Notes under the pieces: model-generated | What the model was told of the DNA's origin: nothing | Database searches by the model: none | What the model saw: only the letters and a program-made list of their open reading frames with translations | Position numbers and translations under genes: made by a program | Origin: a virus | Lineage: Duplodnaviria; Heunggongvirae; Uroviricota; Caudoviricetes | Direction: 5' to 3' (one strand) | DNA: 64,000 nt | Virus record (IMG/VR): IMGVR_UViG_3300025316_001100 | Shown here: piece after piece, positions 12,506 through 58,614 of the stretch | How the letters are laid out: each line of letters starts with the position of its first letter | Numbering within the stretch: position 1 is the first letter of the stretch

Positions 12506-12534
12506 ATTATACTACAGAATTCGGAATTGTAAAC
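12506..12534 (-). promoter_or_regulatory. sigma70-type promoter TTTACA-N17-(GTAG)TATAAT (minus)
   Basis: Reverse complement gives TTTACAattccgaattctgtagTATAAT. Confidence 0.6.
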
Positions 12535-16679: not shown

Positions 16680-17267
16680 TCAATTATCCTCTGCCCCATT
16701 CTTGATCCATCGGTCAATAGCCTTTTGGACTTTAACCCTTGTGGTAATGACAGGGTTGGTACGTCTAAACCAATTACAAAACTGTAGTAACATCTTTTTA
16801 CTGGTGTAATCGGGACTCAAAGCAATCCCCACAGCTACCACGTTCGCCACAGGCAACCACTTTTCTCGCAACGATACTTTCGCCCAACCACAATAATCCA
16901 AAGAATATTTGCGATATGCTAGAGCAAAAGGATTGCATAATCCATGACATGTTCCAGCACCATGTTCATAGCATCGCTGTCTATTGGGACAAGACCAAAC
17001 AAATTTCTTTTTGTGTGATCCTCGCACATGATTACCCCAAGTGCCATCATTCAATTCAGGTTTGCATCCATGATCTAAATCCGCTAGATCCGAATGAAAA
17101 TCTACATTGACCAATGTATCAAAATGATTTTGATTCACATGAGGCAACAATTCTTCGTGACTAATCACCAATCGTTTCGGTGCAGAAATCCGCATTACTT
17201 TTTCAAAATACTTCTGAGGAAACTCCCCTTCCCAGAAGTCTAAATCAATTGATAAATAAATACGCAT
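16680..17267 (-). CDS. hypothetical protein (195 aa), His/Cys-rich
   Basis: ORF. Confidence 0.55.
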   Translation of the reverse strand: MRIYLSIDLDFWEGEFPQKYFEKVMRISAPKRLVISHEELLPHVNQNHFDTLVNVDFHSDLADLDHGCKPELNDGTWGNHVRGSHKKKFVWSCPNRQRCYEHGAGTCHGLCNPFALAYRKYSLDYCGWAKVSLREKWLPVANVVAVGIALSPDYTSKKMLLQFCNWFRRTNPVITTRVKVQKAIDRWIKNGAEDN

Positions 17268-17280
17268 GATTTACAAACCA

Positions 17281-17445
17281 TTAATCTATGTCGGTTAGCG
17301 CACAAATACGGGCACAGTACAATTGATCTTGCAATTTCTTGATTTCAATTTGAGATCGCTCATATCGTCGGCCCCAAATAAATACCAACCACATCAATAG
17401 TGATTGCAGGATACTAAGACCTAACGCTAATACCAAATATGCCAT
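17281..17445 (-). CDS. small membrane protein (54 aa, MAYLVLALGLSILQSLLMWLVFIWGRRYERSQIEIKKLQDQL...), not in the track
   Basis: ATGA overlap with the stop of 17445..17711; one TM helix. Confidence 0.35.
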   Translation of the reverse strand: MAYLVLALGLSILQSLLMWLVFIWGRRYERSQIEIKKLQDQLYCARICALTDID

Positions 17446-17711
17446 CATCTATTGTCGTCTCGCATTTCATCAATGGTTTTAAGATTCGTAGCCCACAATC
17501 CCCCTTGGAGGAATCCCAGCCAGCGATTGGCCTTGTCCATTTTATCCTCTGCAATAATCTTGGGAATCTCCTGGCACATCCATCGTAAATGTTGGAACCT
17601 TGTTCCACCATCCGATTCTCGCACTGGCGATGCCGACACGTAAAGCAAGGCGTCGTACCGCTCCAATACCTCTAACATTTGTTCTTTATTCATGGATTCC
17701 ATCCGAAACAA
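17445..17711 (-). CDS. hypothetical protein (88 aa)
   Basis: ORF. Confidence 0.45.
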   Translation of the reverse strand: MFRMESMNKEQMLEVLERYDALLYVSASPVRESDGGTRFQHLRWMCQEIPKIIAEDKMDKANRWLGFLQGGLWATNLKTIDEMRDDNR

Positions 17712-17813
17712 AAAGGATCAACCCCCACACAATCAAGCAAATGCCCGGCCCCAAGCACCTTGCCAACAAAAAAAGTACACCAGCACACAATAACAATAAA
17801 CTGTCTTTGTTTA

Positions 17814-18086
17814 TCATCTTTGATGCGACCAAATCATTTCCTTAGCCAATTCCTTTTCTTCTTCATCTTCAATCATTACTTCAGCAAGAACAGAAAGACC
17901 TAACAGCATTTGTTCCTCCGACTCTTCCTCGCTAGGAATATAAGGGAATCTACTGTCTTTCCATTTCTTCCTACCAATACGATATGATTCCCAAATGGTA
18001 GTTTTCTTCCAAGCCTTGGGACGCCAACCATCCGTCCAAGGTTCTTGAAGATTTTTTTGAATTTTAATAGCTGTTCGCAATCTCAT
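17814..18086 (-). CDS. hypothetical protein (90 aa)
   Basis: ORF. Confidence 0.45.
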   Translation of the reverse strand: MRLRTAIKIQKNLQEPWTDGWRPKAWKKTTIWESYRIGRKKWKDSRFPYIPSEEESEEQMLLGLSVLAEVMIEDEEEKELAKEMIWSHQR

Positions 18087-18130
18087 GGCTTGTTCCTGTT
18101 ATAAAGTATCTGTCTCATAACAGAGTGCTA

Positions 18131-18168
18131 AATGAGAAAAAAGCCTCACCCGGCTTGCCGGGTGAGGC
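18131..18168 (-). terminator. Rho-independent terminator (minus: GCCTCACCCGGC-AAGC-CGGGTGAGGC then TTTTTTCTCATTT)
   Basis: Perfect GC stem plus T-run, immediately downstream of the 18182 gene end. Confidence 0.6.
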
Positions 18169-18181
18169 TATGCCTTGACTA

Positions 18182-19267
18182 CTAAACCGCAGCCAATTCG
18201 GCACCTAATGCATCGTCATCGGTAACTTCATCTTGATCTTCATAAAGATCATCATTTTGGGCATCTACGCCAGTTACGCAATTATTAAGATGACAGATGA
18301 TTGTATCAAACTCTTCTCCGTTCCGATCATATTGACGGGATGCAAAAGATCGCAAGGCCGCAGGGCTGTAATGCAGTCCAATTTCATGACCTTGTTTAAT
18401 CGTCTTTTCCATCCAAGCACAAACCGCATCGGCATCGGTACTGTTCAACTTGGGAGCATCGCCTGCCGGGGCAAGAATCAAACGATTCCCACAGCCGCAC
18501 TTTTGAAACGCTCTTGATGCCTCAATGTCAACATAGCTAGGCAGATCGAATCGATCCTTTTTAGCCGTTTCAATTTCCTCTACTGGGGGAAACTCATGTT
18601 GGCAAGAAGGGCAAACCTCTACGGTTCGGCCTACGATGATTTTGCATCCAGGGCATTCTTTTCGCCCACGACCACTCTTATCGTAGACCTCCACCTTTTT
18701 GACAAACTCTTCACTACCGCAAGCACAATGCTTGTGAACAGCCGCCATGAATTGGCTGCACTTGGCACACTGCTTTCGGCCAGGACCAGCTTCGCTATAT
18801 GTCTGGACAGCCTTGGGGGCCTTTGGTTCAACTACTCTCTTAACGAATTCAGTAGAACCACAAGCACACTTTAACAATACGCTGGCAATATACTTGTGAC
18901 AGCCCGCACACTGCTTACGACCCTTGCCCGGCTCCTCATGAAGCTGGATCGGCTTGGGGCCTAGCTGAATCGCTTTCTTAATGAATTCTGTAGACCCACA
19001 AATGCAAGCCTTCAAAATTGCACCCACATACTTGTGGCACTTGCCACACTCTTTTCGGCCTTGGCCCGGCGTGTCATAAGTGTTGATGATTTTCAGCTTT
19101 GGGGCTTTGGGTTCCTTGGGAAGCTTTGGGGCCTTGGGAGCCTTCACTACCTTTGGTGGCCTAGTCCCTCCACCCTTTACGGGGAATTGATAGCCACAGT
19201 AGCACTCCTGAAGACGAACTCCGCACGGTGTACCACATTCCTTGCAAATTTTCTTTCCAACTGGCAT
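18182..19267 (-). CDS. Multi-zinc-ribbon repeat protein (361 aa): four or more tandem units G(R/K)GRK(E/Q)CxxCxxx(10)CxCGSxEFVKK, with a KAPKxPK-rich linker
   Basis: Internal protein repeats are visible directly in the translation; function unknown. Confidence 0.6.
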   Translation of the reverse strand: MPVGKKICKECGTPCGVRLQECYCGYQFPVKGGGTRPPKVVKAPKAPKLPKEPKAPKLKIINTYDTPGQGRKECGKCHKYVGAILKACICGSTEFIKKAIQLGPKPIQLHEEPGKGRKQCAGCHKYIASVLLKCACGSTEFVKRVVEPKAPKAVQTYSEAGPGRKQCAKCSQFMAAVHKHCACGSEEFVKKVEVYDKSGRGRKECPGCKIIVGRTVEVCPSCQHEFPPVEEIETAKKDRFDLPSYVDIEASRAFQKCGCGNRLILAPAGDAPKLNSTDADAVCAWMEKTIKQGHEIGLHYSPAALRSFASRQYDRNGEEFDTIICHLNNCVTGVDAQNDDLYEDQDEVTDDDALGAELAAV

Positions 19268-19306
19268 GTTAAAATTCCTTGTGTAAATGGTGCCTTGAAT
19301 ACTCTC

Positions 19307-19326
19307 TCTTATACACCTGGACTGAC
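19307..19326 (-). promoter_or_regulatory. conserved 20-bp element, copy 7 (minus: GTCAGTCCAGGTGTATAAGA)
   Basis: Its TAA is the stop of ORF 19309..19698 (..VSPGV*). Confidence 0.55.
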
Positions 19327-19698
19327 TTGTTTAGCAAGGTCAGTTTCTTGAGCCAATTGTCGGCCCAGCACCAGCAACCCCTCTCTAGCGGCAAAATATT
19401 CGCCAATCTTAGTCTGGCATTCTGGATGATTTTTACCGATTCGACTAGACACCCAACAACTAGCACAACCAGAGTCCATCATGGCATTAACATATCGCCG
19501 GAACTCCAATGGATACTCGACAGCTAAGCCGATTGACAAAAGTAGCTCCTCTTCGGCATCATGAATTTCTTTCATCAGTTGGGCACAATGATCGGACATT
19601 GCCGTAGAAGGGTCTTTCAACATTTTTTGAGGATTATCCTCAGCAGCATCATGGGCCTTGCTCCACTTAACGATGGTTTCTTTCAAAAAATCATTCAT
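19309..19698 (-). CDS. hypothetical protein (129 aa)
   Basis: ORF. Confidence 0.5.
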   Translation of the reverse strand: MNDFLKETIVKWSKAHDAAEDNPQKMLKDPSTAMSDHCAQLMKEIHDAEEELLLSIGLAVEYPLEFRRYVNAMMDSGCASCWVSSRIGKNHPECQTKIGEYFAAREGLLVLGRQLAQETDLAKQVSPGV

Positions 19699-19886
19699 TT
19701 CATTTCTCTCCCAAGAGCAATACCCTCGGCAAACAGTTTTGCTTTAGGATAGGTGAAAGTTGTTTTGAATGGCCGTGAAGGGTCACCAAAAACAAAACAT
19801 GTAACGCCCATTTCCTTGTAAGCTACAACCGGCAGACCAGAAAGGTCTTGCAGAGTTTTAATTCGATCTGGCAGTATTTCTTTCAT
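19695..19886 (-). CDS. hypothetical protein (63 aa)
   Basis: ORF; ATGA coupling. Confidence 0.45.
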   Translation of the reverse strand: MKEILPDRIKTLQDLSGLPVVAYKEMGVTCFVFGDPSRPFKTTFTYPKAKLFAEGIALGREMK

Positions 19887-19896
19887 CAGTACCCTC

Positions 19897-19933
19897 TATA
19901 AAAAGACCCTGCCCGGCCTTTGGCCGGGCAGGG
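19897..19933 (-). terminator. Rho-independent terminator (minus: CCCTGCCCGGCC-AAAG-GCCGGGCAGGG then TCTTTTTATAG)
   Basis: Perfect stem plus T-run, 15 nt upstream of the 19886 start and downstream of two promoters. Confidence 0.55.
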
Positions 19934-20016
19934 TTGTCCAAGGATACTGGATGCAACTCAATTTTAACCGGGGAGCCTCATTTTGAGACGAAGTGATCCG
20001 GTGCTGCACCCAATAT

Positions 20017-20044
20017 ATTATAGCGTAGCTGGACGCAAATTCAA
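20017..20044 (-). promoter_or_regulatory. sigma70-type promoter TTGAAT-N16-TATAAT (minus)
   Basis: Reverse complement gives TTGAATttgcgtccagctacgcTATAAT. Confidence 0.45.
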
Positions 20045-20085
20045 GTCCCATCTACGCAAATTCTATCATTCTGGCCTTCAGAATG

Positions 20086-20114
20086 ATTATACTACAAATG
20101 GGGTTTCTTGTAAA
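20086..20114 (-). promoter_or_regulatory. sigma70-type promoter TTTACA-N17-(GTAG)TATAAT (minus)
   Basis: Reverse complement gives TTTACAagaaaccccatttgtagTATAAT; no ORF lies before the terminator at 19897-19933. Confidence 0.55.
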
Positions 20115-20123
20115 GATGACCAA

Positions 20124-20330
20124 TTAAGTGTCGATTCCGCCTAAAAGTCGCTCGTCATCGTCATCTTCGACATTGATTTCAAGGTTCAGGGCATCGATCA
20201 TACATTCCAGATCAGACGCCAACTCCTCTAGTGACTCAACAGTTTTGAATTTGCTCACCGACCTGTCACCCATCACCTTATCAATGGCACTCTTGGCATC
20301 CTGCTTTAATTGTTCGTGCTGATTCATCAT
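20124..20330 (-). CDS. hypothetical acidic protein (68 aa)
   Basis: ORF. Confidence 0.4.
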   Translation of the reverse strand: MMNQHEQLKQDAKSAIDKVMGDRSVSKFKTVESLEELASDLECMIDALNLEINVEDDDDERLLGGIDT

Positions 20331-20596
20331 GTCTCCAATTCTGAATCTATATGACCTCGCCTATTTCCATCAATCATGAGTCCATCCGGATTAAAAATAC
20401 ACCCATGAATGACTTCCCAACCTGGAAGTTCGGATTCGGCCCAATCGCAAGCATAGCTAAATGGCATCCGCTTAGGCAATTTATAGGTCATATAACTACC
20501 CGTACTTTCACGCTCCATCCTCACATATTCAACTGCCTGTTTCATTTTCTTTCTCCAATTCAAGAATACCTTTGCCGAAAGGAACATCCTTTTCAT
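20327..20596 (-). CDS. hypothetical protein (89 aa)
   Basis: ORF. Confidence 0.45.
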   Translation of the reverse strand: MKRMFLSAKVFLNWRKKMKQAVEYVRMERESTGSYMTYKLPKRMPFSYACDWAESELPGWEVIHGCIFNPDGLMIDGNRRGHIDSELET

Positions 20597-20669
20597 TCAA
20601 AGGTTCGCAATCACTTGCCAGCACTTGGTGAATTACCCCTCCCACAAGGGGAGGGGCTTCCAATCTAAC

Positions 20670-21893
20670 TTAACTGCTTGTCAATGCGACAAGACTTACA
20701 TTAGAACTCAATTGGCTATCCCCTGCATTCCGCAGGTTCATCATTCTTAAACCTTCGTTTAAGATATTCTTACTCGCATTGTAATCTCTATCGTGAGGCG
20801 TAAAACAATTAAAACAAGTCCAATGGCGTTCTTCCCCTAAATCACGATATCTCCATCCACATTCACTACACAATTGGGAAGATGGAAACCATCGGTCTAT
20901 TTTAATTATTTGTCTTCCATACCACTTTGCTTTATACATCAACTTTTGAACAAATGACGAGAAACAACAATCATTTAATTGGCGATGAAGTAATTTTTCT
21001 CTCCATCGCTTCTCTTTCCTTTTTTCTGGGTCTTTGTTTTTCAGCATTGATTTTACACTTAAATCTTCAATAACTATGACTTGGTTCTCATCAATTATTT
21101 TTTTAGATGTTTTGTGTAAGAAATCTTCACGAACATTACTTTGCTTTACTTTCAACTTATTTAACGCTAATTTACTTTTGTTTCTACGATTGCTTCCTTT
21201 AACTTTTCTGCTAACGGAACGAGCAAGGAAGCGTTCTCTTGACTTATATTTTGTAGTAGCAGGACGAGGATTAGCGAACCTTTCATCCTCACTACTTACA
21301 ATATATTGAACATTAAGGTCTAAACCTACAACTTTAATTACTTTGGGTAATTCTTCTATTTCTTTGACACAAGTAATAGAAACAAAGTATTGATTGGCTT
21401 TGTTTTTGCTAATTGTGGCAAACTCAATTTCACCTTCTAATGGTCGGTGAAGGATGATTGGGATGCCTTCAAGGAACTTCGGTATGACTAATTTATCATC
21501 AATCACTTTAACATTTTGTGGCACACGGAATGACTGCTTGCCGTGTCTTTTCTTAAATCGTGGGAAACCACACTTACCTTTGAATTTGCCTTGTTTCTTT
21601 AACTTACATTTTTCAAAGAAATTATCAAAGCCATTCTGTAATTGGCGTGCTGCGTATTGAAGTGATTGACTACCGACTTCCTTCAACCATTCGTATATTT
21701 GTTTCAATTCAGGAATACTTGTGGCGTTGTCATAATAATTTAATGACTTATGTTCTTCACCTTTATGAGCATCAATGCGAGAACGGAGAAACTGATTATA
21801 CAAAAACCTTACGCAACCAAAGTGTTTGGCTAAAAGTATTTGTTGTTGCTCCGTTGGATACAACCTATATTTATAGGTAAATTGATGCTTCAT
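20670..21893 (-). CDS. tnpB: TnpB/OrfB transposase-associated RNA-guided nuclease family protein (407 aa)
   Basis: N-terminal YKYRLYPTEQQQILLAKHFGCVRFLYNQFL (the OrfB helix-turn-helix signature); C-terminal CSECG...WTCFNCF...DRDYNASKNI (Zn-finger plus the RuvC-III motif). Confidence 0.8.
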   Translation of the reverse strand: MKHQFTYKYRLYPTEQQQILLAKHFGCVRFLYNQFLRSRIDAHKGEEHKSLNYYDNATSIPELKQIYEWLKEVGSQSLQYAARQLQNGFDNFFEKCKLKKQGKFKGKCGFPRFKKRHGKQSFRVPQNVKVIDDKLVIPKFLEGIPIILHRPLEGEIEFATISKNKANQYFVSITCVKEIEELPKVIKVVGLDLNVQYIVSSEDERFANPRPATTKYKSRERFLARSVSRKVKGSNRRNKSKLALNKLKVKQSNVREDFLHKTSKKIIDENQVIVIEDLSVKSMLKNKDPEKRKEKRWREKLLHRQLNDCCFSSFVQKLMYKAKWYGRQIIKIDRWFPSSQLCSECGWRYRDLGEERHWTCFNCFTPHDRDYNASKNILNEGLRMMNLRNAGDSQLSSNVSLVALTSS

Positions 21894-22135
21894 TTGTTGG
21901 GTTTTGTCGCCTTTTTAATTGGATAAACTTGTTCTAACGCCTCTCTTATGAGGTCTGAAAGCGTTAAGTTTTCATTTCTTTCAAGAGACAATTTGTGAGA
22001 CATTTGAGTTAAATGTTCTGCTTGTTCATCTTCAAAATTGACACATATCTTTTTCATACTACAATTATATAGTAATCTAATTATATTTTTCAACACTAAT
22101 TCCAAATTATTTTCACTTATTTTAGTGGCGGGCAT
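21890..22135 (-). CDS. hypothetical protein (81 aa) inside the IS region
   Basis: ORF overlapping the tnpB start by 4 nt; no recognisable TnpA (Y1 or serine) motifs. Confidence 0.3.
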   Translation of the reverse strand: MPATKISENNLELVLKNIIRLLYNCSMKKICVNFEDEQAEHLTQMSHKLSLERNENLTLSDLIREALEQVYPIKKATKPNK

Positions 22136-22407
22136 TCATCCCCTACCACAAGGGTTTGACCTAGTTCGCATTTTCACTCGCTCCGCTCGTTCAACGCTCA
22201 CAGGTCAAACATTTCTGCGAAATGTAGAGGTTTTCTGCCCGCACGACCTATAAAGCATTGGCTTGCCGTCCTTTACTCCTCCAAACCAAATATCACAATG
22301 GCCACGAAACACGCCACCACACGTATCGTTACGGATGATGCAGGCCAATGCGCCATTCGACGGCTTATATCGCACAAAATCACGAATTGTTTGCATTTGA
22401 TTTTCTC

Positions 22408-22653
22408 CTAAAAACTCAACTCACATTGAAGAAGCTTACCTTTTTCATCATGGAAAACATTTGTTGCCATTAAAGAAATTGACAAGCCTCTATGGAATGT
22501 AATTTGATAACAGGACGATCCATCTGTCTCCCATTCAGTTTCGGCATCGTATTCATCAATAGGAATGCCATAAGGCCGAAATAAATCTCTAGCCTGAACA
22601 ACCAACTGTTCGCTGATTTCTCGTTTTTCTTGATCGTCTTGGTTAATCACCAT
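22408..22653 (-). CDS. hypothetical acidic protein (81 aa)
   Basis: ORF. Confidence 0.45.
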
Positions 22654-23389
22654 TGTCTAATCCGCTTTCAATAAACCTAGTGACTTCAGTCAAAACTTGC
22701 CGATGTTTAGTGTTGTCAAAGTCTTTTAATTTGACAATAGCAGCCTCCCGTAAACGCACCAATCGAGCATTTTCGACTTCGATTGCTGTCATTTCCGGCA
22801 CCGTTAAATCAATAGGTGTCAAGGTCGCAGGATTAGACTCGCCGGGCCGGGCACTATATGCTGGGCTTTCAACAATGTTGCCGTAGTGTGGAGTAAAAGT
22901 ATCTCCCAACTGCATCATTTTAGGGAAATAAGAATGATAAATATGACCATCATTTTGACGCCGTGACAAATCATGACTCGACCACTTGCCTATCATAGCA
23001 ATAGGTTTCAACACATTGCCCTGACGACCCTCTTTATCTTCTCCGTAAACAACTTCACAACGAACAAAGTTTTCAAAACCATTATTGTAATGAAGAATCT
23101 GACCGACCTTTAGATTGGCATAAAAAGAATCTTGAACGCTCATGGACTGCTCGAACATCCGTTCCATGCCGACCGATGCAAGAATTTCTTTGGACGTAAA
23201 CACCTTACGGGTTCCGGCCCAATCACTATCGATTTCTGTGCCGTCTTGCAACTTGAATTTCTCATTAACGATTGCACACATCCATACTCCGCTACCCTTG
23301 GACAGCTTTACCTCCCATAGGGGATTACTATCGGCATAGTGATACCGAAAACGCATACCCTTACTAACTCGCTTACTAACAGTCTTCAT
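22643..23389 (-). CDS. hypothetical protein (248 aa)
   Basis: ORF. Confidence 0.55.
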   Translation of the reverse strand: MKTVSKRVSKGMRFRYHYADSNPLWEVKLSKGSGVWMCAIVNEKFKLQDGTEIDSDWAGTRKVFTSKEILASVGMERMFEQSMSVQDSFYANLKVGQILHYNNGFENFVRCEVVYGEDKEGRQGNVLKPIAMIGKWSSHDLSRRQNDGHIYHSYFPKMMQLGDTFTPHYGNIVESPAYSARPGESNPATLTPIDLTVPEMTAIEVENARLVRLREAAIVKLKDFDNTKHRQVLTEVTRFIESGLDNGD

Positions 23390-23410
23390 ATTATTGGTCC
23401 TTTCATCTTC

Positions 23411-23430
23411 CTCTTATACACCTGGACTCA
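23411..23430 (-). promoter_or_regulatory. conserved 20-bp element, copy 8 (minus: GTGAGTCCAGGTGTATAAGA)
   Basis: Followed by GGAAGATGAAAGGACCAATAATATG; its TAA is the stop of 23414..23647. Confidence 0.55.
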
Positions 23431-23647
23431 CGGCATTAAGTTGCCTAACAGCAGAAGCACTCCAACGACCAATATCGCCAACCTCGTTCCAACCACATGT
23501 ATCATCTGGATCATTTTGAGACAAACGTACAATTCGATCACTTCCTCTAGCACCAACCAAGACCCCTTTAACCTCACGCTTACATCCTGGTCCCTCAGTG
23601 CGAGTTAGACTTCCACGTTCAATTATAACTGGTGTACCGAATTTCAT
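23414..23647 (-). CDS. hypothetical protein (77 aa)
   Basis: ORF ending ..VSPGV*. Confidence 0.4.
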   Translation of the reverse strand: MKFGTPVIIERGSLTRTEGPGCKREVKGVLVGARGSDRIVRLSQNDPDDTCGWNEVGDIGRWSASAVRQLNAVSPGV

Positions 23648-23783
23648 ATTTATCTCCTATAATAAAAGTGGCAGCCTCCGGTCTACTACCCTCGACGCCC
23701 TTACGGACGAACCGGAGGCCCTTATCAACACCATTCTGGCAAACCAGTGGTGGGGTGAGGCTCACACGGCCACTATTTCAATC

Positions 23784-24119
23784 TTACCCGCATTTTTGCT
23801 TACGCACCTTATTCGCTGTCTTTACTTCACCTAGACGTTCCAGTTCAAAACAAAGCGTGGTAATGGCAACTTTATAATGAATAATTTCATTCATAATCTG
23901 CTTGACTCTAGGATTGATGGTGAACTGTTCCACCTTGCGTGCTAACGCCTTAGCAGATCTTGGCGTTCGATCCATCTTCAAAAAGACTTCTACCAAATCC
24001 ATGTCGCCACATTCACCACGGGCAATCTTACCGGCCGTACAATAGCCACAACAAGTATTGTGGTCCAATCGATAAGCCAAATGACCCTTTTGATCTTCAT
24101 TCAATTCAGAGATTTTCAT
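23784..24119 (-). CDS. hypothetical protein (111 aa), Cys-rich
   Basis: ORF. Confidence 0.5.
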   Translation of the reverse strand: MKISELNEDQKGHLAYRLDHNTCCGYCTAGKIARGECGDMDLVEVFLKMDRTPRSAKALARKVEQFTINPRVKQIMNEIIHYKVAITTLCFELERLGEVKTANKVRKQKCG

Positions 24120-24400
24120 CCTGCCGCCCTCGCTAATCTCATGTGTTTAATCTTCTCAATATCTACTACGATTTCATGCATGAGAGCAACAGCCTTACTA
24201 GCAATGTGATACGCTCCTGGCTCTTCTTCTTTCATATCCTGCAAATAATTGATGATTACTGCCACCGAAGCATCAATTGAACTGGTTTCTGGCGCAGTAC
24301 CAATGAGCCGCTTACGTTTCGCTTTAGGAGGCACAACCGCCACAGGCGGTTGTGCCTCTTGTGGCGGAAGTGACGGAATTTCAAACATCAAATCGTCCAT
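24116..24400 (-). CDS. hypothetical protein (94 aa)
   Basis: ORF; ATGA coupling. Confidence 0.5.
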   Translation of the reverse strand: MDDLMFEIPSLPPQEAQPPVAVVPPKAKRKRLIGTAPETSSIDASVAVIINYLQDMKEEEPGAYHIASKAVALMHEIVVDIEKIKHMRLARAAG

Positions 24401-25278
24401 TATTCATCACTCCAACGATTTTGTCTCTGTTCACGAAAGGTTCGCAATTGGTAAAGCTGATCTTCCATTGCCTTCATTAATTCCGTCATGGCAGGATCAA
24501 GATCATTGACTTCATATTTACGATCCACCAACACTCTAGCAACCCTTTTACCCAGTTCGGCATTAAGACACGCACACACATCGCCGTGACCCATATATTT
24601 CACATCGAACTTGGGCCGTTCTACTTCTGGACACTCATCACTTGAACGCTTTGCCCGTTTCTTAATTGCTTTAGTGGGATTTTGCAATCTGCACACTAGG
24701 GCGTCCAAACTCTCTTCAAAAGGATGCCCATTCTTATTTCTTTGAGAAACTACAGTTGCCAACGCACTACAAAATCGTTCATTAGCAATAATGTATAAAC
24801 GACCATAAAATGATCGAATGTCGTACAACATATCAGATACTTTATCCTGTTCTTGTCGCAACGCATAAAGCACTTCTTCTGATTGTTGAAGCAAATTGAA
24901 CAGTGGCGGTTCAAAATAACCGTTTTCTTCTTGTCGATCTTCCAGAACTGACATGATACGTCTAGTCAAATCTGTCGTCATGCCAATTACTGCATAGCGA
25001 ATGAAAACAGGCTGAACATCGAATTCTTCTGTTGCAACATCCGTTCGACGTTTCTTGCCAATAGATTCAATGTCACTCAGCTTATCGGCCAGCAAATCCA
25101 ATTCATCTTCAATCGGACCAGAAAGTCTCTTACGTTGATCCAAAGCTTTTGCAAACAGTTCACAGAAATTTTGATTTGCCAGCAAAAAAGCACGATTGTT
25201 AAATGGCCGGATATTAAATACCGGCTTGCGCTCAGTGGGCTGAATTTGTTCCATCATAGGTGTATCCCCTCTGACCAA
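24400..25278 (-). CDS. hypothetical protein (292 aa)
   Basis: ORF. Confidence 0.55.
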   Translation of the reverse strand: MVRGDTPMMEQIQPTERKPVFNIRPFNNRAFLLANQNFCELFAKALDQRKRLSGPIEDELDLLADKLSDIESIGKKRRTDVATEEFDVQPVFIRYAVIGMTTDLTRRIMSVLEDRQEENGYFEPPLFNLLQQSEEVLYALRQEQDKVSDMLYDIRSFYGRLYIIANERFCSALATVVSQRNKNGHPFEESLDALVCRLQNPTKAIKKRAKRSSDECPEVERPKFDVKYMGHGDVCACLNAELGKRVARVLVDRKYEVNDLDPAMTELMKAMEDQLYQLRTFREQRQNRWSDE

Positions 25279-26070: not shown

Positions 26071-26099
26071 ATTATACTACGAAATAAAGCTTTGTAAAC
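26071..26099 (-). promoter_or_regulatory. sigma70-type promoter TTTACA-N17-(GTAG)TATAAT (minus)
   Basis: Reverse complement gives TTTACAaagctttatttcgtagTATAAT. Confidence 0.6.
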
Positions 26100-28260: not shown

Positions 28261-28281
28261 TGTGTTATACACCCGGACTCA
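28261..28281 (-). promoter_or_regulatory. conserved 20-bp element, copy 9 (minus: CTGAGTCCGGGTGTATAACAC)
   Basis: Lies 24 nt downstream of the promoter -10 and upstream of the 28223 start. Confidence 0.6.
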
Positions 28282-28305
28282 GTTTGATTTCATCTTCGCT
28301 ATAAA

Positions 28306-30189: not shown

Positions 30190-30218
30190 ATTATACTACA
30201 AAAATATTCCTTGTAAAC
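30190..30218 (-). promoter_or_regulatory. sigma70-type promoter TTTACA-N17-(GTAG)TATAAT (minus)
   Basis: Reverse complement gives TTTACAaggaatatttttgtagTATAAT. Confidence 0.6.
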
Positions 30219-34059: not shown

Positions 34060-34087
34060 ATTATACTACAAAAAGAACCAATGTAAA
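34060..34087 (-). promoter_or_regulatory. sigma70-type promoter TTTACA-N16-(GTAG)TATAAT (minus)
   Basis: Reverse complement gives TTTACAttggttctttttgtagTATAAT; the -35 overlaps the T-tract of the upstream terminator. Confidence 0.55.
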
Positions 34088-34121
34088 CAAAACCGCCCGG
34101 CCTTGGCCGGGCGGTTTTTCC
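34083..34121 (-). terminator. Rho-independent terminator (minus: AAACCGCCCGGCC-AAG-GCCGGGCGGTTT then TGTTTACAT)
   Basis: Perfect GC stem plus T-run, after the 34127 gene end. Confidence 0.55.
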
Positions 34122-41705: not shown

Positions 41706-42926
41706 TCAGGCTGCCTTCACTTCAAAATCATCGGGATCATAATTACCGAAATCCAGGGCTGGAATGTCGATCTTCACCGCATCTTCGCCCAGATTCGGAA
41801 TACCCCGCTTGTTCAACTCATCAATACCCGCCATCGTCAGCGAGTAGCCCTGACTGGTCACTGCAACCAATGCAGGTTCATTCTCCGTAGCTGTCAGCAA
41901 TGGTGGCATCAGGTAATGAATCAATTCTTCCTCTTTGCAACCTGCATAAAGGATCAATCGACTACGTGGGATTGCTCCCTGTTGGCCCAATGCCGCCAAT
42001 ACCGTAATTCGCTGTCGGGTCATGCCATACGGATCAATGTCATTGTCACGGGCCACAGCCGCCGCAACCTGTTCCCAGGATACTGCGCCCTTATGGCTCT
42101 GAAGTTCGTACTCGGCCCGCATGTCAACAGCAAACGCCAGGGCTTCACGTGGAACCCGCCAGCAATACTTTGCTACCAACTTGCAAACGCTCATATCCCA
42201 ATCGGGATTTGCACGACGCACGATCTCTGCAATTTCATCCCGGCCATACAGATTCAAATAAATCTTTCGGAACCGGGTATCAAAAGCATCAAACAATAGA
42301 CCACGATCCGTGGTCGCAATAATCCAGCAAACCCTACGGCAATCGGCAGTCCAACCATCGCCCAAAGACAGCATACCGTCTTTCGGTTCGGTTGCCTTCA
42401 ACAATGCCTGCACAACCGGATTCGGCAAAGCATGTACTTCGTCAATCAATGCCACGGTTGGCGGAATGACAAAGACCCTATTCTCATCTGGGTTTAATCG
42501 CAAGGTGATGGGATCACCACCACTTTGTTCATAAGCCACACGATCAAGAACATCGGCAAATGCTTCAACAATATCCAGAGCATTTTGAACTGCCTTCGGC
42601 TGAATCTCAACATAAGGCAACAAAGTCGTCTGGCCGAACAATCGTGCCAGAGTCGTCTTACCCGCCGATGAACCACCGATCAAAGAAAACTGCTGATCGC
42701 CACCAGCATGGTTTTCACGGCCCCACATTTGGTACGCCGCCCGGCTCAATCGCCGCTTCGCCTTGTCGTTGCCCACAAACTTGGACAACGGGCAATCGGG
42801 ATTCTGATGGCTAGTCTTCCACTGACGCTGCTCGACCGACAAGCCAGTATTGAACAACAACTGGTTCTGTGGGCCGGGCTCTCGCACCAGCAAAGGACTC
42901 AAGATTGTTTTGTTACCTTTACGCAT
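41706..42926 (-). CDS. RuvB-like AAA+ ATPase (406 aa)
   Basis: Walker A GGSSAGKTTLARLF; Walker B VALIDEVHAL; sensor and arginine region IIATTDRGLL..FDTRFRK; C-terminal winged-helix segment resembling the RuvB domain III pattern. Confidence 0.55.
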   Translation of the reverse strand: MRKGNKTILSPLLVREPGPQNQLLFNTGLSVEQRQWKTSHQNPDCPLSKFVGNDKAKRRLSRAAYQMWGRENHAGGDQQFSLIGGSSAGKTTLARLFGQTTLLPYVEIQPKAVQNALDIVEAFADVLDRVAYEQSGGDPITLRLNPDENRVFVIPPTVALIDEVHALPNPVVQALLKATEPKDGMLSLGDGWTADCRRVCWIIATTDRGLLFDAFDTRFRKIYLNLYGRDEIAEIVRRANPDWDMSVCKLVAKYCWRVPREALAFAVDMRAEYELQSHKGAVSWEQVAAAVARDNDIDPYGMTRQRITVLAALGQQGAIPRSRLILYAGCKEEELIHYLMPPLLTATENEPALVAVTSQGYSLTMAGIDELNKRGIPNLGEDAVKIDIPALDFGNYDPDDFEVKAA

Positions 42927-42977: not shown

Positions 42978-42999
42978 TGTGTTATACACCCGGACTCAG
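42978..42999 (-). promoter_or_regulatory. conserved 20-bp element, copy 12 (minus: CTGAGTCCGGGTGTATAACACA)
   Basis: Lies 4 nt downstream of a GTAGTATAAT -10 box at 43004-43013 and upstream of the RuvB-like gene. Confidence 0.55.
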
Positions 43000-43008
43000 G
43001 GTATTATA

Positions 43009-44043
43009 CTACGCAGAAGCCCTTTTGGGACGTTGTGCTTCGTAAGTTTTCTGAATCTTGGCAATCGCACTGTTGAACGCCAACCGGGTGAATCGCCGGG
43101 AATACGGCTTACCAGTATTGGGATTGATGTTGGCAGCCGCCACTGCTGTTTGCCAACCTTTTTCCCAATGCTCACCAAGCAATTCCTTGTTCGGCTGTTG
43201 GAAAGCCATCAGTACAGCATTTTCAAACGGGGTAAGAACCGTTTCTCGAATCGCACGACGTTGATCGTGATCTAGCAATTCAGGCACCGGCCGCAACTCA
43301 TCGGAAAACAACGTCTCAAATACGGCTGAATCTCCATCCACTGCACTTCCTTCATGCTTGGATGACATGCTTGTGGCATGATACGTTTCGGTCAACGTAG
43401 CTTGCACAATCGCACATTCATTTTCGTTGAATCCCAAGTATGCCGTCACTTCATCAAAGGTGGCAGGCCGATTAAAATCAGCACGGCCCTCTTCGTAAAG
43501 CATATGCAATTTACGAGCCTCATTTGACCAGGGGGACAACGGATTGGCCTTATTGACCGCACCCGCCAACTTCCTACGAACGCAATGGTACAAATAGGTC
43601 ATAAAAGCAATGTTGGTATCGGTGTAATAGTACATCGCATTGATGGCACCGATGATGCCTTCATCGTAATAATCTTGAAACGACAAGATCATTTCGGGAT
43701 GAGCCGACGCATACCGATAAGCCAATTTTTCAATGCAACGGGTATAACCACATAGAATCTCCATACGAATATCGGTTACCGCCTGAATCTTTTCCAGGGA
43801 CTTGGCATCCAACTTAATACCACGAATAGAACTCACTACGCCCTTCTTCATGGCATCAACCAGTTCGTCACGAAAGTCCGCTCGGCTGTAAGACTTACGC
43901 TTGATGTCAGCAATTTCTACAACCTGATCGTACATCTGCTTTAGGGCCTTATTACCCCGACGCATAACCTTCGCCAACTGATCCTTCCGTTCCTTAGACA
44001 AGGGCATATACGGAAGGGTTTCGTGATCGGCTACAATTCGCAT
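43009..44043 (-). CDS. sigma-70 family RNA polymerase sigma factor-like protein (344 aa)
   Basis: Region 2-like FQDYYDEGIIGAINAMYYYTDTNIAFMTYLYHCVRRKLAGAV (compare DLIQEG.IGL.KAV.KFD...FSTYA.WWIRQ); region 4-like LDHDQRRAIRETVLTPFENAVLMAF ... FTRLAFNSAIAKIQK. Confidence 0.55.
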   Translation of the reverse strand: MRIVADHETLPYMPLSKERKDQLAKVMRRGNKALKQMYDQVVEIADIKRKSYSRADFRDELVDAMKKGVVSSIRGIKLDAKSLEKIQAVTDIRMEILCGYTRCIEKLAYRYASAHPEMILSFQDYYDEGIIGAINAMYYYTDTNIAFMTYLYHCVRRKLAGAVNKANPLSPWSNEARKLHMLYEEGRADFNRPATFDEVTAYLGFNENECAIVQATLTETYHATSMSSKHEGSAVDGDSAVFETLFSDELRPVPELLDHDQRRAIRETVLTPFENAVLMAFQQPNKELLGEHWEKGWQTAVAAANINPNTGKPYSRRFTRLAFNSAIAKIQKTYEAQRPKRASA

Positions 44044-44097
44044 GATTCAAAATCTTTCTGATAAAATGGGTAACTTGTTATTTGCGTTTCCGCCTCA

Positions 44098-44117
44098 TGT
44101 TATACACCTGGACTCAC
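44098..44117 (-). promoter_or_regulatory. conserved 20-bp element, copy 13 (minus: GTGAGTCCAGGTGTATAACA)
   Basis: Upstream of the sigma-like gene; its TAA is the stop of 44100..44402. Confidence 0.55.
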
Positions 44118-44402
44118 TTGATTTTTCACCTCTTTCGCCCGAAATCGGGCCAAACCCTCAGCAAAAGCCGCTTCGGGAGTGGCACACCAGCCGCAAATGC
44201 CGGTGTTATACCAAGAACCGTTCTCAGTACCGGGCATGATACTCTTTGGCCCCTTGCTGTCAAGACCATTCCACCACGTCGGACCATTGCTCCAATCCAG
44301 AACACAGTAAAAATAGGGGGTTCTGATAGTGGAGTCGTTCCAATCCACGTTTTCGGGATCATCATCAGGGACTAAGTGAACTTCAATTTTAGGATTTTGC
44401 AT
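44100..44402 (-). CDS. hypothetical protein (100 aa)
   Basis: ORF ending ..QVSPGV*. Confidence 0.45.
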   Translation of the reverse strand: MQNPKIEVHLVPDDDPENVDWNDSTIRTPYFYCVLDWSNGPTWWNGLDSKGPKSIMPGTENGSWYNTGICGWCATPEAAFAEGLARFRAKEVKNQVSPGV

Positions 44403-47037: not shown

Positions 47038-47049
47038 AGAGAGGGAAAC

Positions 47050-47736
47050 ATGGAACGAGTTAGTGTAATCGAAGGAGATATCCCAGTGCTAATCGTGGCA
47101 CCTCATGGCTGCCAACAAGATGACTTCAACACTGCCTATATTGCCGAAACCGTTGCCACTGACCTTTCAGCCTATGCTGTTATTAATCGTGGATGGGAAA
47201 AATCTGATAAGGTAGATTGCTTTAAGGATAAAGCCAATTGCAATAATGTTCCACACTGTCATGAATATGTGGTAAAAGATGAATTCCTAATGCCCATTAT
47301 GCGATACGTTGTCCAAATTTCAAAATTCAGTCGCTTTACCTACATCTTTTATATTCATGGAATGAAAGATGATATTAAAAAGCAATTCCCTGATCTCCAA
47401 ATCATCATCGGTTGTGGTAAGGGTAAGTTTCAATCATTCCCCAGTTGTGATGAATGCCGTAAAGACGCCTTTGTTTCATTTTTAATTAACAAAGGTGTTA
47501 AAGCTTACGAAGGCGTTGATGGCCAATATGCTGGTAAAGATCCTAATAACATGAATCAATTATACCGAAAATGGTATCCTAATTCTGATGTTCATAGTAT
47601 GCAGTTAGAAATTGTGAGAAGTTGCCGCACACCAAAGTGTGCGGCAACTTCTATGGCTACCAACATTTCTAGAGCGATTAGTGATTTAGTAGCAATCAGC
47701 GATCATGGTTTTAGCCGAATTATTGTAAGTCCATAG
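47050..47736 (+). CDS. hypothetical protein (228 aa), plus strand; possible amidohydrolase-like fold
   Basis: Clean ORF with RBS AGAGAGGGAAAC; IVAPHGCQQDD and HG.KDD segments suggest a metal-dependent hydrolase, but this is unconfirmed. Confidence 0.5.
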   Translation: MERVSVIEGDIPVLIVAPHGCQQDDFNTAYIAETVATDLSAYAVINRGWEKSDKVDCFKDKANCNNVPHCHEYVVKDEFLMPIMRYVVQISKFSRFTYIFYIHGMKDDIKKQFPDLQIIIGCGKGKFQSFPSCDECRKDAFVSFLINKGVKAYEGVDGQYAGKDPNNMNQLYRKWYPNSDVHSMQLEIVRSCRTPKCAATSMATNISRAISDLVAISDHGFSRIIVSP

Positions 47737-48259
47737 GAACATTCCCAAGAATCTGCTTCTGTTCATCAGTTAAACGAATTCTAGTGGGAATTTTATCTAC
47801 AGACCAATTACTTTGAATATAAACCACTTCTGCATTAGGAGCAATTTGTTGCAAACTTGCAAAGTTGTTGTTGTTCAACACTCCCAAAACCCACACCCGA
47901 TGTTCTAGTTCTTTAGTTTTTGCCACGATCCCATTAACAGTGTTTGTTAACATTTCCGAACCTTGATCTGGTCTAAGATCTAACTTCACTGGTTGCTGTT
48001 CCATCGGAGCAGTATCCAGTTGCTCCATTTGTTGTACTTGCGACTCTGGCACTACATTTTTATTAGTATGATACTGTAACGCCAAATAAATAAACGCTCC
48101 TAATGCCACAATCGCTATCAATAGAAACATTGTAGCTAAAACTTCGTGAGCCACTTGTGGCTTAACAACAGCCGGAATCGGCTGAGGCGATGGCAACGGA
48201 GCCGGATCTGTTGCCGCCATCTGCCTCTTTAATTCTTCTACCCATTTTGATTTGGACAT
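47720..48259 (-). CDS. membrane-anchored protein (179 aa), one TM helix
   Basis: ORF; RBS GGAGGAATTATG; hydrophobic stretch LATMFLLIAIVALGAFIYLAL. Confidence 0.55.
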   Translation of the reverse strand: MSKSKWVEELKRQMAATDPAPLPSPQPIPAVVKPQVAHEVLATMFLLIAIVALGAFIYLALQYHTNKNVVPESQVQQMEQLDTAPMEQQPVKLDLRPDQGSEMLTNTVNGIVAKTKELEHRVWVLGVLNNNNFASLQQIAPNAEVVYIQSNWSVDKIPTRIRLTDEQKQILGNVPMDLQ

Positions 48260-48467
48260 AATTCCTCCAACGGTTATACTAATAGAATAGTTAAAATCTT
48301 AAAAATTATTTCACATAAAAAATGCAGAATATGTTACCTCCCTACAAAAACTCTACCACCCATTCGTTAAGAAATGTTTTGTTGTTAAAACAAAAAATCC
48401 CAAACAGCCCGATGAATATTTTAGCAGCCTACGATTTTTCTCCAATGCATGCCCAATCTTTACAGAA

Positions 48468-49001
48468 ATGCGAAAAAAATGGTACAAAGAACCTTTTGTT
48501 CGCAGAAGCAAAAAAATAGTCCCATCTGATTTAATTTTAACATGGAGAATCGCTGCATTGTGGGCCTGCGATGATGGTACTAATAATCATAAAATACGCA
48601 CGTTTAGATTGTCCACTAATTGTTTTTCTGAAACTGATGTTTGTTTTCTCATTACTAGATTAGATAATGACCTTGGTGTAAAAGCACGCATGAATATGGA
48701 ACGTAATCAACCAACAATTACCATGTGCGGAGCAAATGCTGAAAAATTTATAGATGGCATCAAACGCTACATACCGTGGTCTTGCCTGCAATACAAATTA
48801 AAGTGGCGTCCGAGTCTTAACCCAAACACTTCTGGCATTATTGGCGTAAGTAAGGTTGGTAGATATTGGCAAGCTCATATTATGATAAATGGAATTAAAA
48901 AATTCCAACACTTTAATACAAAAGAAGAAGCAATTCTAATACGAAAGGAATGGGAAAATGATAAATTATTGGTTAGAGAAAGACAAAGCAGAACAAGCTA
49001 A
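48468..49001 (+). CDS. Putative homing endonuclease with a LAGLIDADG-like motif and a C-terminal AP2 DNA-binding domain (177 aa)
   Basis: IAALWACDDGTNN (LAGLIDADG-like); C-terminal GIIGVSKVGRYWQAHIMINGIKKFQHFNTKEEAILIRKEWE matches the phage AP2 domain pattern; plus strand against a minus-strand background. Confidence 0.45.
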   Translation: MRKKWYKEPFVRRSKKIVPSDLILTWRIAALWACDDGTNNHKIRTFRLSTNCFSETDVCFLITRLDNDLGVKARMNMERNQPTITMCGANAEKFIDGIKRYIPWSCLQYKLKWRPSLNPNTSGIIGVSKVGRYWQAHIMINGIKKFQHFNTKEEAILIRKEWENDKLLVRERQSRTS

Positions 49002-49227
49002 AGCAGTCCACTCATTTACAATCACCACAGGTGCAAACCACTATTGTGGGTGTGGAAATGTAACCTATACTTGCGGTGTGGGAACATATCATTGTGGCAA
49101 TATTATAATGAATGTACTTCCTTCTTGCGTGCCTTGTGGAAGCGGTTCAGTTTATTGTGGCAACGTGCCTGTTTATGGCAATTGTAGCTTTACATATTCT
49201 GAAAACGTTTGTAGCATTACCTGTTAA
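48958..49227 (+). CDS. small Cys/Gly-rich protein (89 aa)
   Basis: ORF followed by a bidirectional terminator; repeated CG(N/S)V motifs; uncertain. Confidence 0.3.
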   Translation: MINYWLEKDKAEQAKAVHSFTITTGANHYCGCGNVTYTCGVGTYHCGNIIMNVLPSCVPCGSGSVYCGNVPVYGNCSFTYSENVCSITC

Positions 49228-49237
49228 TTAAATAAAC

Positions 49238-49270
49238 AAACCCACCCGGCCAAAGGCCGGGTGGGTTTTA
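49238..49270. terminator. Bidirectional Rho-independent terminator (ACCCACCCGGCC-AAA-GGCCGGGTGGGT, T-runs on both sides)
   Basis: Perfect GC stem between the converging plus gene (end 49227) and minus gene (end 49297). Confidence 0.6.
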
Positions 49271-49296
49271 ACGATCAATGGTGGAGCATTGATCAA

Positions 49297-50178
49297 TTAG
49301 TTTGCAGGAACACCAACGGTTTCCTTTTTGACTTCGGTCGGACCAAGAGCCTTTTCGACCGGAACAAAAGTAATTTGTCCAACTTCACCGTTGCTATTGC
49401 CAAGAGCAGATTGAGAAATGCCCGCCAGTCGGTCAAACTCATTACTCGCATTAGTATCTAATGCATACTTGAGGAATTCATCTTCCGATTGCTTTGCCTC
49501 GACACCGGCCAATTTCTGGCTGATCTTAGCTTCAGAAGTAATACGCCGACGCATATCCTGCAATCGTTGAAGTGTTTCGCCACTGCGACTTTGACTGATA
49601 CCAGAAATGATATCATTCGCTTCCTTTTCTTGCTTGGCGATTTCAACATCGGCTACAGTTGCGTCCTTCTGTTCTTTGATTTTGCCGAGTTCACGAATCA
49701 TGCCTTGCATGGTCACTTCGTAACCCGTCAACTGTTTGGCCGATTCTTCCAACTCATCGTGAAGACGAGAAGCTTCTGTCTTCTTGCTGCTCAAGGTTGA
49801 AGTGGCATCTTTGAAACCCCCAGAGCAACGCAAATAATCTGCATCCACCTGAATTTCTGCATCGCTCTTACCTTGAGACTTTAGCAATTGTGCTCGCTTT
49901 TGTCCCATTGCCAAAGCACCGGCCATAATCTTTTCCTGCTTGGCAACATCCTGGTCTAGTTCCGCAAGACGATCTTGCTTCTTCAACTGAACAGACATAA
50001 TGCCAGCTACCGCTCGTTTTACTTCTTGGATACGAGTGCGATGTTCGGTTTCCACAGCATCAAACTGTGCCCGAATCGCTGTCGGACTGGACTCCCAAAC
50101 TTGAGACCAGTAATCGAAATTTCCGGTCAGAGTGTAGAGAATCGCACGAATCAATCTACCAAACGCCTTAAACATCAC
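49297..50178 (-). CDS. PspA/IM30 (Vipp1)-like coiled-coil protein (293 aa)
   Basis: The N-terminus MMFKAFGRLIRAILYTLTGNFDYWSQVWESSPTAIRAQFDAVETEHRTRIQEVKRAVAG parallels the PspA N-terminus ([40 protein letters not shown]...). The remainder is long heptad coiled-coil. Confidence 0.4.
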   Translation of the reverse strand: MMFKAFGRLIRAILYTLTGNFDYWSQVWESSPTAIRAQFDAVETEHRTRIQEVKRAVAGIMSVQLKKQDRLAELDQDVAKQEKIMAGALAMGQKRAQLLKSQGKSDAEIQVDADYLRCSGGFKDATSTLSSKKTEASRLHDELEESAKQLTGYEVTMQGMIRELGKIKEQKDATVADVEIAKQEKEANDIISGISQSRSGETLQRLQDMRRRITSEAKISQKLAGVEAKQSEDEFLKYALDTNASNEFDRLAGISQSALGNSNGEVGQITFVPVEKALGPTEVKKETVGVPAN

Positions 50179-54068: not shown

Positions 54069-54083
54069 GATTAGGTTCCTTTC

Positions 54084-58347: not shown

Positions 58348-58614
58348 GATCTACTCATTCTTTCCCCATGTGCCCACCGAGACATACACTGATTAACTCG
58401 CCAAGCACCACACCACGGTCGATGCCAATGAGATTCACGGGTATTACTAAAACAAATAGTCCACGGGTAAATGACCATCATTTTTTTGTTCTCGTTTCTT
58501 GTTTCCACCTGGACATATAACTGCCAAATCGCCAACAACCGGGCCATCTGCGATGCCAAAAAGCTTCACGTCCATTACAAGCGAATGATAGTGTGACAGG
58601 CCATGCTTTGCGAA

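Follow-up and report, generated by a model that had tools for sequence, protein, structure and literature searches.

The DNA analysed here, referred to as the window, is a stretch of 64,000 nt of the IMG/VR virus record IMGVR_UViG_3300025316_001100 (Duplodnaviria; Heunggongvirae; Uroviricota; Caudoviricetes). Between positions 20628 and 22249 on its minus strand it carries a complete mobile element of 1,622 bp, an insertion sequence (IS) of the IS200/IS605 type that has split a small gene of an uncultivated huge phage. In the direction of transcription the element consists of a left end (LE), a promoter, the genes arc and tnpB, an omega-RNA and a right end (RE). We consider it, with good confidence, a non-autonomous arc-tnpB element that was inserted by Y1-transposase peel-and-paste 3' of TTTAT, its activity being deduced from published IS605 biology. 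An original prediction, made from the letters without database searches, had already proposed an IS200/IS605-family TnpB element in phage DNA. The 407-aa open reading frame (ORF), its Pfam domains and alleles with an empty site confirm this proposal; it had overlooked arc, the fact that a phage gene is disrupted, and TTTAT as the target motif.

Boundaries and empty site

The ends of the element were defined by alignment with the contig L032, in which the site is empty. Window positions 23663 to 22250 correspond to L032 38–1451, and window positions 20627 to 20358 continue at L032 1452–1721. Since positions 22250 and 20627 are neighbouring bases in L032 (1451|1452), the insert comprises exactly 1,622 bp and follows directly after TTTAT with no target-site duplication. 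This combination of a missing duplication and a position after TTTAT is a signature of IS200/IS605 insertions. The limits proposed originally (20600–22230) were correct to within about 30 nt, the true ends being 20628 and 22249. In the other copies of the element the homology stops at the identical bases, as it always ends at ...GGGAGGGGTAATTCAC (window 20628) and starts after TTTAT.

The pentanucleotide TTTAT, the target or transposon-adjacent motif (TAM), occupies 22250–22254 (minus strand) directly 5' of the LE, where it lies within the phage gene and contributes to the codons Leu-Tyr. The empty alleles L032 and L033 contain it as well, and it adjoins the LE in five of five independent insertions (window, L001, L003, L043 and L044). 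The same motif is the TAM of the experimentally tested ISGst2 TnpB2 (bioRxiv 10.1101/2023.03.14.532601).

The interrupted phage gene lies on the minus strand as well. Its 5' part (22250–22396) comprises codons 1–49, and the present ORF reads on into the LE and stops at 22205 after 63 aa. The 3' part (20529–20627) comprises codons 50–81 with the stop codon and is in frame with the 5' part after removal of the element. Excision of 20628–22249 in silico fuses both ORF fragments to a gene for an 81-aa protein, and a protein search with this repaired gene revealed an intact 81-aa protein (P0121) with 98% identity over 100% of the length. P0121 is encoded by L032 and L033, which are syntenic with the window at 87–98% identity. 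The truncated 63-aa form was found as well (P0122), in a cluster that includes a contig of 373,808 bp. The empty allele surfaced only by this protein search; the exact empty-site DNA pattern gave no match in IMG/VR. Megablast of 19000–24000 against 50,697 phage records returned no match, and the neighbouring 248-aa protein, used as query against IMG/VR and against metagenomes of JGI, led to no sibling loci. The filled allele recurs: the 83.8-kb JGI contig L034 is 100% identical to window 17000–25000, and the window copy of the element occurs with 100% identity in independent metagenome contigs.

Two further indels distinguish L032 from the window in this region. L032 contains an additional 268-aa gene on the opposite strand (L032 2406–3212 versus window 19241–19305) without a Pfam match, and it is missing about 190 bp in which the window has a 68-aa ORF at 20124–20330 (window 20114–20358 versus L032 1721–1775).

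The composition of the insert agrees with the AT-rich island that had been described from the letters. Its GC content is 35.9%, versus 44.1% for the window outside it; compared with 37 stretches of 1622 bp that do not overlap, z is −3.55. It represents the lowest-GC 1.6 kb in the 64 kb, and the 0.5% of sliding windows that are equally low overlap either the insert or an island at about 47–49 kb.

Both ends are asymmetric, the LE differing from the RE, with subterminal hairpins at 22209–22225 and 20636–20656 and no terminal inverted repeats. Within the LE structures (22147–22225, minus strand) the 7-bp hairpin 22209–22225 is located 24 nt from the LE end. It is accompanied by a long-range inverted repeat at 22147–22162/22202–22217, whose 16-nt arms match at 81% around a core of 9 bp. 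An inverted repeat had been predicted here at about 22163–22215; the repeat is present, with its arms at the positions just given. According to alignments judged by eye, two-sided changes in L001 and L003 maintain both LE structures. The subterminal GC hairpin of the RE (20636–20656, minus strand) has a perfect 8-bp stem, CCCCTCCC/GGGAGGGG (arms 20636–20643 and 20649–20656), and a 5-nt loop. It begins 13 nt past the tnpB stop, and 8 nt separate it from the right end; its location is about 9 nt off the one first assigned to it (20627–20647). Compensatory changes in L037–L039 preserve this hairpin, which forms the terminal helix of the predicted omega-RNA and is probably, in single-stranded DNA, the RE hairpin recognised by TnpA.

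TnpB and omega-RNA

The tnpB gene (20670–21893, minus strand; the coding sequence including the stop codon ends at 20670) is uninterrupted and encodes 407 aa. The protein matches the Pfam families HTH_OrfB_IS605 (PF12323), OrfB_IS605 (PF01385) and Cas12f1-like_TNB (PF07282), each over the cut-off, and its residues 7–384 align to the solved ISDra2 TnpB (8BF8/8EXA) with E = 2.2e-54. The RuvC residues D192, E276 and D370 are intact, with D191, E278 and D361 as counterparts in ISDra2, and the zinc-ribbon cysteines C342, C345, C360 and C363 are in place. The original prediction had named siblings without any empty-site allele, or a protein without the TnpB RuvC fold, as findings that would speak against it. 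Empty-site alleles were found in L032 and L033, and the alignment of the protein with ISDra2 TnpB runs from end to end. The ratio of nonsynonymous to synonymous substitution rates (dN/dS) of tnpB, 0.12–0.15 against six other copies, indicates that the gene is under purifying selection. The statement that such a gene is unusual in a phage was too strong, as TnpB homologs occur in 417 of the 50,697 phage records and phages often encode TnpB (PMC12607003). A second TnpB had been suspected in a 406-aa ORF at 41706–42926; this candidate was discarded, the product being an AAA/clamp-loader-like protein.

The omega-RNA scaffold of 116 nt is predicted at 20628–20743 (minus strand), where it overlaps the last 74 nt of tnpB and ends at the RE (..GGTAATTCAC). 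In an alignment of 10 copies, including relatives with TnpB only 63–65% identical, conservation reaches the RE and then ceases. RNAalifold gave six helices with 30 pairs for these copies, and compensatory double changes were observed in 18 of the 30. Paired cells amount to 96%; sliding the 3' partners lowers this to 29–51%, and none of 500 shuffles attains the observed values. The window sequence itself folds with z = −4.82. A covariance model (R1) built from 13 copies has one match in the window, at 20628–20743 with 136 bits, and none at the empty-site loci. With this covariation-supported scaffold the earlier assignment of the 3' hairpin to the omega-RNA or right end holds. The family-wide dN/dS together with the covariation of the omega-RNA points to selection for function.

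The 20 nt flanking the RE, CAAGTGCTGGCAAGTGATTG (20608–20627, minus strand), are the predicted guide of the omega-RNA, 20 nt being an assumed guide length. Exactly this sequence follows TTTAT in the empty alleles L032 and L033. It occurs once in the window, allowing up to 3 mismatches, and the RE flank is unlike that of the window in every other copy of the element. A conserved omega-RNA of this kind, predicted to overlap the 3' end of tnpB, to end at the RE and to draw its guide from the flank, is a feature of the IS200/IS605 family.

An insert in frame within a coding gene could also be an IStron-like element that is spliced from the mRNA and leaves the phage gene functional, and clostridia are known to harbour IStrons that derive from IS605 and carry TnpB and Arc (10.1101/2023.11.20.567912). 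However, a search of Rfam at E ≤ 1 over 19500–23500 revealed nothing, neither an omega-RNA family nor a group I intron, and the non-coding LE of only about 190 nt is too short for a group I ribozyme. Splicing of the insert is therefore hardly credible.

Arc and promoter

Upstream of tnpB the element contains the arc gene (21890–22057, minus strand) for a 55-aa ribbon-helix-helix (RHH)-like protein (MKKICVNF...). Its stop codon overlaps the tnpB start by 4 nt (ATGA), and from this arrangement arc is predicted to be translationally coupled to tnpB. The small ORF with the 4-nt overlap is kept in all full copies, where it exists as two sequence variants, and it is also found in the relatives with TnpB 63–65% identical, for which the precomputed Pfam annotation is RHH_1 (weak). 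For the second variant (variant B) the Pfam score for RHH_1 is 20.7 bits versus a cut-off of 20.5. The AlphaFold2 model of the window Arc, with a predicted local distance difference test (pLDDT) value of 83, exhibits an extended N-terminus and two helices, as expected of an RHH monomer. A total of 16 arc homologs was collected, mostly of 54–57 aa. A longer reading of 81 aa from a start at 22135 was dropped in favour of the 55-aa start because of this homolog length and because the N-terminal extension is unconserved in variant B.

Since arc is located inside the element boundaries, the element is an arc-tnpB element and does not belong to the tnpB-only elements of the IS1341 group. The classification as TnpB-only and IS1341-like had to be given up for this reason, and also in view of an arc-tnpA-tnpB relative with the same RE (L040, see below).

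A promoter scan revealed a sigma-70-like promoter at 22064–22093 (minus strand; TTGAAA, 18-nt spacer, TATAAT), which matches 11 of 12 consensus positions. Its −10 box ends 7 nt ahead of the arc ATG, and this short distance suggests a leaderless arc-tnpB mRNA. Within the promoter spacer a palindrome at 22074–22087 may serve as the operator for Arc. In other IS605 elements, for which both arc+tnpB and arc+tnpA+tnpB forms are mentioned, Arc proteins bind the promoter of the element and repress it (bioRxiv 10.64898/2026.09.24.754181). By analogy, the window Arc may repress the promoter of its element.

Another strong sigma-70-like promoter with 11 of 12 consensus positions was observed in antisense orientation at 22038–22065 (plus strand; TTGACA-16-TACAAT). 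It is situated in the arc start, faces the arc promoter and is directed outward through the LE. This sequence may be a leftover of a bidirectional arc-tnpA/tnpB promoter or an antisense regulator.

Relatives and mobility

Four IMG/VR contigs and several contigs from ENA/JGI, unrelated in their flanks, contain close copies of the element with 82–97% protein identity. A metagenome scan with the RE motif added nine loci, giving at least 15 different RE flanks in total. Exact scans of IMG/VR with the RE and LE motifs returned only two contigs, both already known. One relative, L040 (186–2007 of Ga0114919_10103777), contains co-directional genes for a 64-aa Arc, a Y1 TnpA of 133 aa and a TnpB of 405 aa, and its RE is identical to that of the window. 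The transposase matches Pfam Y1_Tnp (E = 3e-35), PDB entry 2EC2 (E = 1e-30) and ISDra2 TnpA 2XM3 (E = 1e-21). By its gene content L040 is the autonomous form of the family. As L040 combines tnpA with the same RE, the window copy is a derivative without tnpA, for which mobilisation in trans is conceivable.

Reduced forms occur as well. L044 and L045 are copies with internal deletions, and in L003 tnpB is frameshifted. A TnpB-less mini-element of about 550 bp is found in the 172-kb contig Ga0118677_10000093 (L043, 8999–9548); it retains the LE and the promoter, and its full-length omega-RNA (93 bits) ends in another guide. Full-length matches to the omega-RNA were also obtained for L042 (2063–2178, 135 bits) and L048 (12–126, 87 bits), which are probably TnpB-less, too. 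Such copies would need TnpB in trans. The large number of insertion sites and the omega-RNA-only mini-derivatives show, at the level of compared sequences, recent mobility of the family.

A further copy occupies the same insertion point as that of the window. In L036 and a contig of ENA ERZ1426847 the phage flank is identical to the window in 739 of 739 nt, and the first ~120 nt of the LE are the same. In L036 the stretch 740–1014 lies at the site of window 22249–21975. Past the ~120 nt of LE a different promoter/arc module (MATAINIKL...) follows that is similar to that of L040. Either family members have exchanged modules at this one site, or the assembly is chimeric across the LE that they share.

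Mechanism and alternative explanations

The element would be transcribed from its own promoter and, being co-oriented with the phage operon, presumably also by read-through from that operon. TnpB with its omega-RNA would cut sites of the type TTTAT+CAAGTGCTGG..., namely the donor joint once the element has been excised, or the allele of a sibling phage that lacks the interruption and infects the same cell. Recombination with a filled copy would then repair the cut and so restore or spread the element (homing), and Arc would damp expression. TnpA provided in trans by an autonomous family member could excise the element and insert it 3' of new TTTAT sites. These steps are those of the IS605 cycle as published (Meers et al. 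10.1101/2023.03.14.532601; Moon et al. 10.64898/2026.09.24.754181; review PMC13565253).

Several points weigh against this reading of a functional arc-tnpB element in a huge phage. As originally predicted, the element contains no Y1 TnpA, and the 92 window ORFs of 100–220 aa gave no Y1_Tnp match. In case of the window variant of Arc the Pfam match (RHH_3, E = 0.01) is under the cut-off, and the best PDB matches in profile and Foldseek searches, CopG and NikR, are both not significant. Filled and empty alleles originate from separate samples with flanks that are 5–8% different; co-infection and homing between the two lineages are plausible. Finally, there is no virion structural gene in the window, and its phage nature is indicated indirectly by PHROG matches, the AAA match described below, ORFans, homing endonucleases and the 374-kb contig in the P0122 cluster.

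The absence of virion structural genes would suit bacterial or prophage DNA in which the IS is a host element in a chromosomal context, and IS605-family elements are mostly chromosomal. The content of the window argues otherwise. It consists nearly exclusively of ORFans on the minus strand, the PHROG matches, although weak, are to a clamp loader and a sigma factor, and no tRNA or housekeeping gene was seen in it. One AAA protein encoded there shares 45% identity with a gene product of the 595-kb uncultured phage LR756511.1; this match and the 374-kb contig of the P0122 cluster indicate a huge phage. IMG/VR viral contigs contain close copies of the element, whereas a scan of 185,579 GTDB species genomes revealed no close copy of the TnpB. 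The best match there has 38% identity, and as the scan returned only such distant TnpBs (≤38%; Kurthia, Waterburya), a host cannot be named from it. The host-derived or prophage context that had been offered as an alternative is, with this GTDB result and the synteny of the window with phage-like contigs, very improbable.

It could also be argued that the window copy is intact merely because it was inserted recently, that it is silent and inactive in the phage and that it will decay. Decayed or deleted copies are indeed found elsewhere (the frameshift in L003 and the deletions in L044 and L045), the window is devoid of TnpA in the ORF size range searched, and the interrupted gene is evidently dispensable. 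Against such an inert passenger, the low dN/dS and the omega-RNA covariation show selection for function, and the window copy combines all catalytic residues with a strong promoter and the orientation of the phage operon. Moreover, its 100% identity is seen across independent metagenome contigs. We therefore judge a functionless insert to be unlikely.

A benefit for the phage has to be considered as well. TnpB might be kept for cutting insertion-free sibling phages (marker exclusion) and would then be mainly a factor in inter-phage competition and less a selfish transposon. The guide equals the empty allele of the sibling lineage exactly, beside the TAM, and the possibility is discussed in a review (PMC13565253). 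Classical homing endonucleases (HNH, LAGLIDADG) are encoded in the same window, and the presence of several of them suggests that such conflicts are common in this phage. On the other hand, the identity of guide and flank follows automatically from the insertion and gives no evidence of selection for targeting, and the many unrelated insertion sites as well as the mini-derivatives fit selfish spread. A role as a weapon seems, on balance, rather improbable, and we retain the interpretation as a mobile arc-tnpB element.

Comparison with known systems

The closest described counterparts are ISGst2-type elements of Geobacillus stearothermophilus (Meers et al. 2023). They share a tnpB overlapped by an omega-RNA at the RE, the absence of tnpA, the TTTAT TAM and a guide that equals the RE flank, and they are mobilised by a related TnpA in trans. 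Omega-RNA-only derivatives, the palindrome-associated transposable elements (PATEs), exist there as well. In contrast, the window element additionally contains arc, and the family is located in huge-phage and viral contigs instead of a bacterial chromosome; this comparison is one of features. ISDra2 of Deinococcus radiodurans resembles the window element in the D-E-D site and zinc ribbon of TnpB and in the insertion chemistry 3' of a pentanucleotide, and its TnpA is the one matched by the L040 transposase. It differs in its TAM (TTGAT versus TTTAT here), contains no arc, and the protein sequences are clearly diverged.

Arc-containing IS605 elements (Zedaveinyte et al. 2024; Moon et al. 2026) carry a small RHH gene adjoining tnpB inside the IS, where the window element has its RHH-like arc, exist in arc+tnpB-only and arc+tnpA+tnpB forms and have a strong promoter in the adjacent intergenic DNA. 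Many of them are divergent (arc-tnpA <-> tnpB), whereas here arc, tnpA (where present) and tnpB are co-directional and coupled by ATGA. The likeness of the window Arc to the experimentally tested Arcs is one of gene position. A small RHH gene directly upstream of tnpB is also known from the archaeal RHH/MazE-TnpB modules (Altae-Tran et al. 2023). Those modules have a rearranged catalytic site, are immobile and were proposed to be toxin-antitoxin-like, while the catalytic site of the window element is canonical and the element is mobile.

A functional parallel is given by the homing endonucleases of T4-like phages (Seg, Mob, I-TevI). Both show presence/absence polymorphism, the nuclease targets the allele that lacks its gene, and spread is expected via recombinational repair during co-infection. 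For the window element, however, the target would be set by RNA pairing and the TAM and not by the protein, and TnpA permits transposition to new sites.

Already published are the TTTAT TAM, tnpB elements that are non-autonomous or mobilised in trans, PATEs that consist of the omega-RNA only, Arc, and the frequent occurrence of TnpB in phages, huge phages among them. The window element is an unnamed further instance of a described element class; each of its components is known and the element itself is ordinary. What makes it valuable is how finely it is resolved and where it is found: a huge-phage lineage occurs in both states, with and without the element, and the guide is a perfect match to the empty allele. 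On the filled/empty pair, non-restorative homing of a transposon from one co-infecting phage to another could be tested with natural material; according to a 2026 review (PMC13565253) this process is still theoretical in phages. For experimental use, the compact TnpB/omega-RNA pair offers a defined TAM, a scaffold and a candidate repressor.

Tentatively, one may go further and suppose that the arc-tnpA-tnpB/arc-tnpB family is essentially confined to huge phages and that tnpA-less copies spread mainly by RNA-guided homing into empty alleles at co-infection. The family may be confined in this way because it was seen only in viral and metagenomic contigs and in none of the GTDB species genomes; we regard the complete proposal as possible but doubtful. 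If true, phage-confined homing would amount to a natural RNA-guided gene drive in viruses, with the omega-RNA-only mini-elements exploiting TnpB in trans.

Other features of the window

A second low-GC island extends over 47044–49331. Its genes are on the opposite (plus) strand and include an ORF for a LAGLIDADG_2 homing endonuclease (48468–49001), and it is probably another mobile insertion. More endonucleases are encoded at 50203–51159 (HNH) and 61331–62218 (LAGLIDADG).

Two repeated motifs could be related to transcription of the phage genes. The first, TTATACACCYGGACTCA on the plus strand (TGAGTCCRGGTGTATAA on the coding strand), has 13 copies, for example at 19306–19330, 23411–23435, 28262–28286, 42979–43003 and 44097–44121. 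At the two copies checked (19306–19330 and 23411–23435) it is located tens of nt upstream of minus-strand genes, and it looks like a phage-specific promoter. A sigma-factor-like protein is encoded at 43009–44043. The second motif, GTTTACA-N17-TATAAT on the coding (minus) strand, occurs four times (12506–12534, 26071–26099, 30190–30218 and 34060–34088) and represents a near-consensus sigma-70 promoter, possibly for early transcription by the host polymerase.

A 361-aa protein (18182–19267, minus strand) is composed of at least four tandem CxxC...CxCG zinc-ribbon-like units (e.g. GRKECGKCHKYVGAILKACICGSTEF), with a sub-threshold match to UPF0547. Two adjacent SPFH/Band-7 paralogs of 534 and 514 aa are encoded within 52464–55628 and 57214–59400 (minus strand). 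Beside this pair, a fusion of a flavoprotein with an M23 peptidase (57214–58347) and a DFP (CoaB-like) gene were found, which form a metabolic cluster unusual for a phage.

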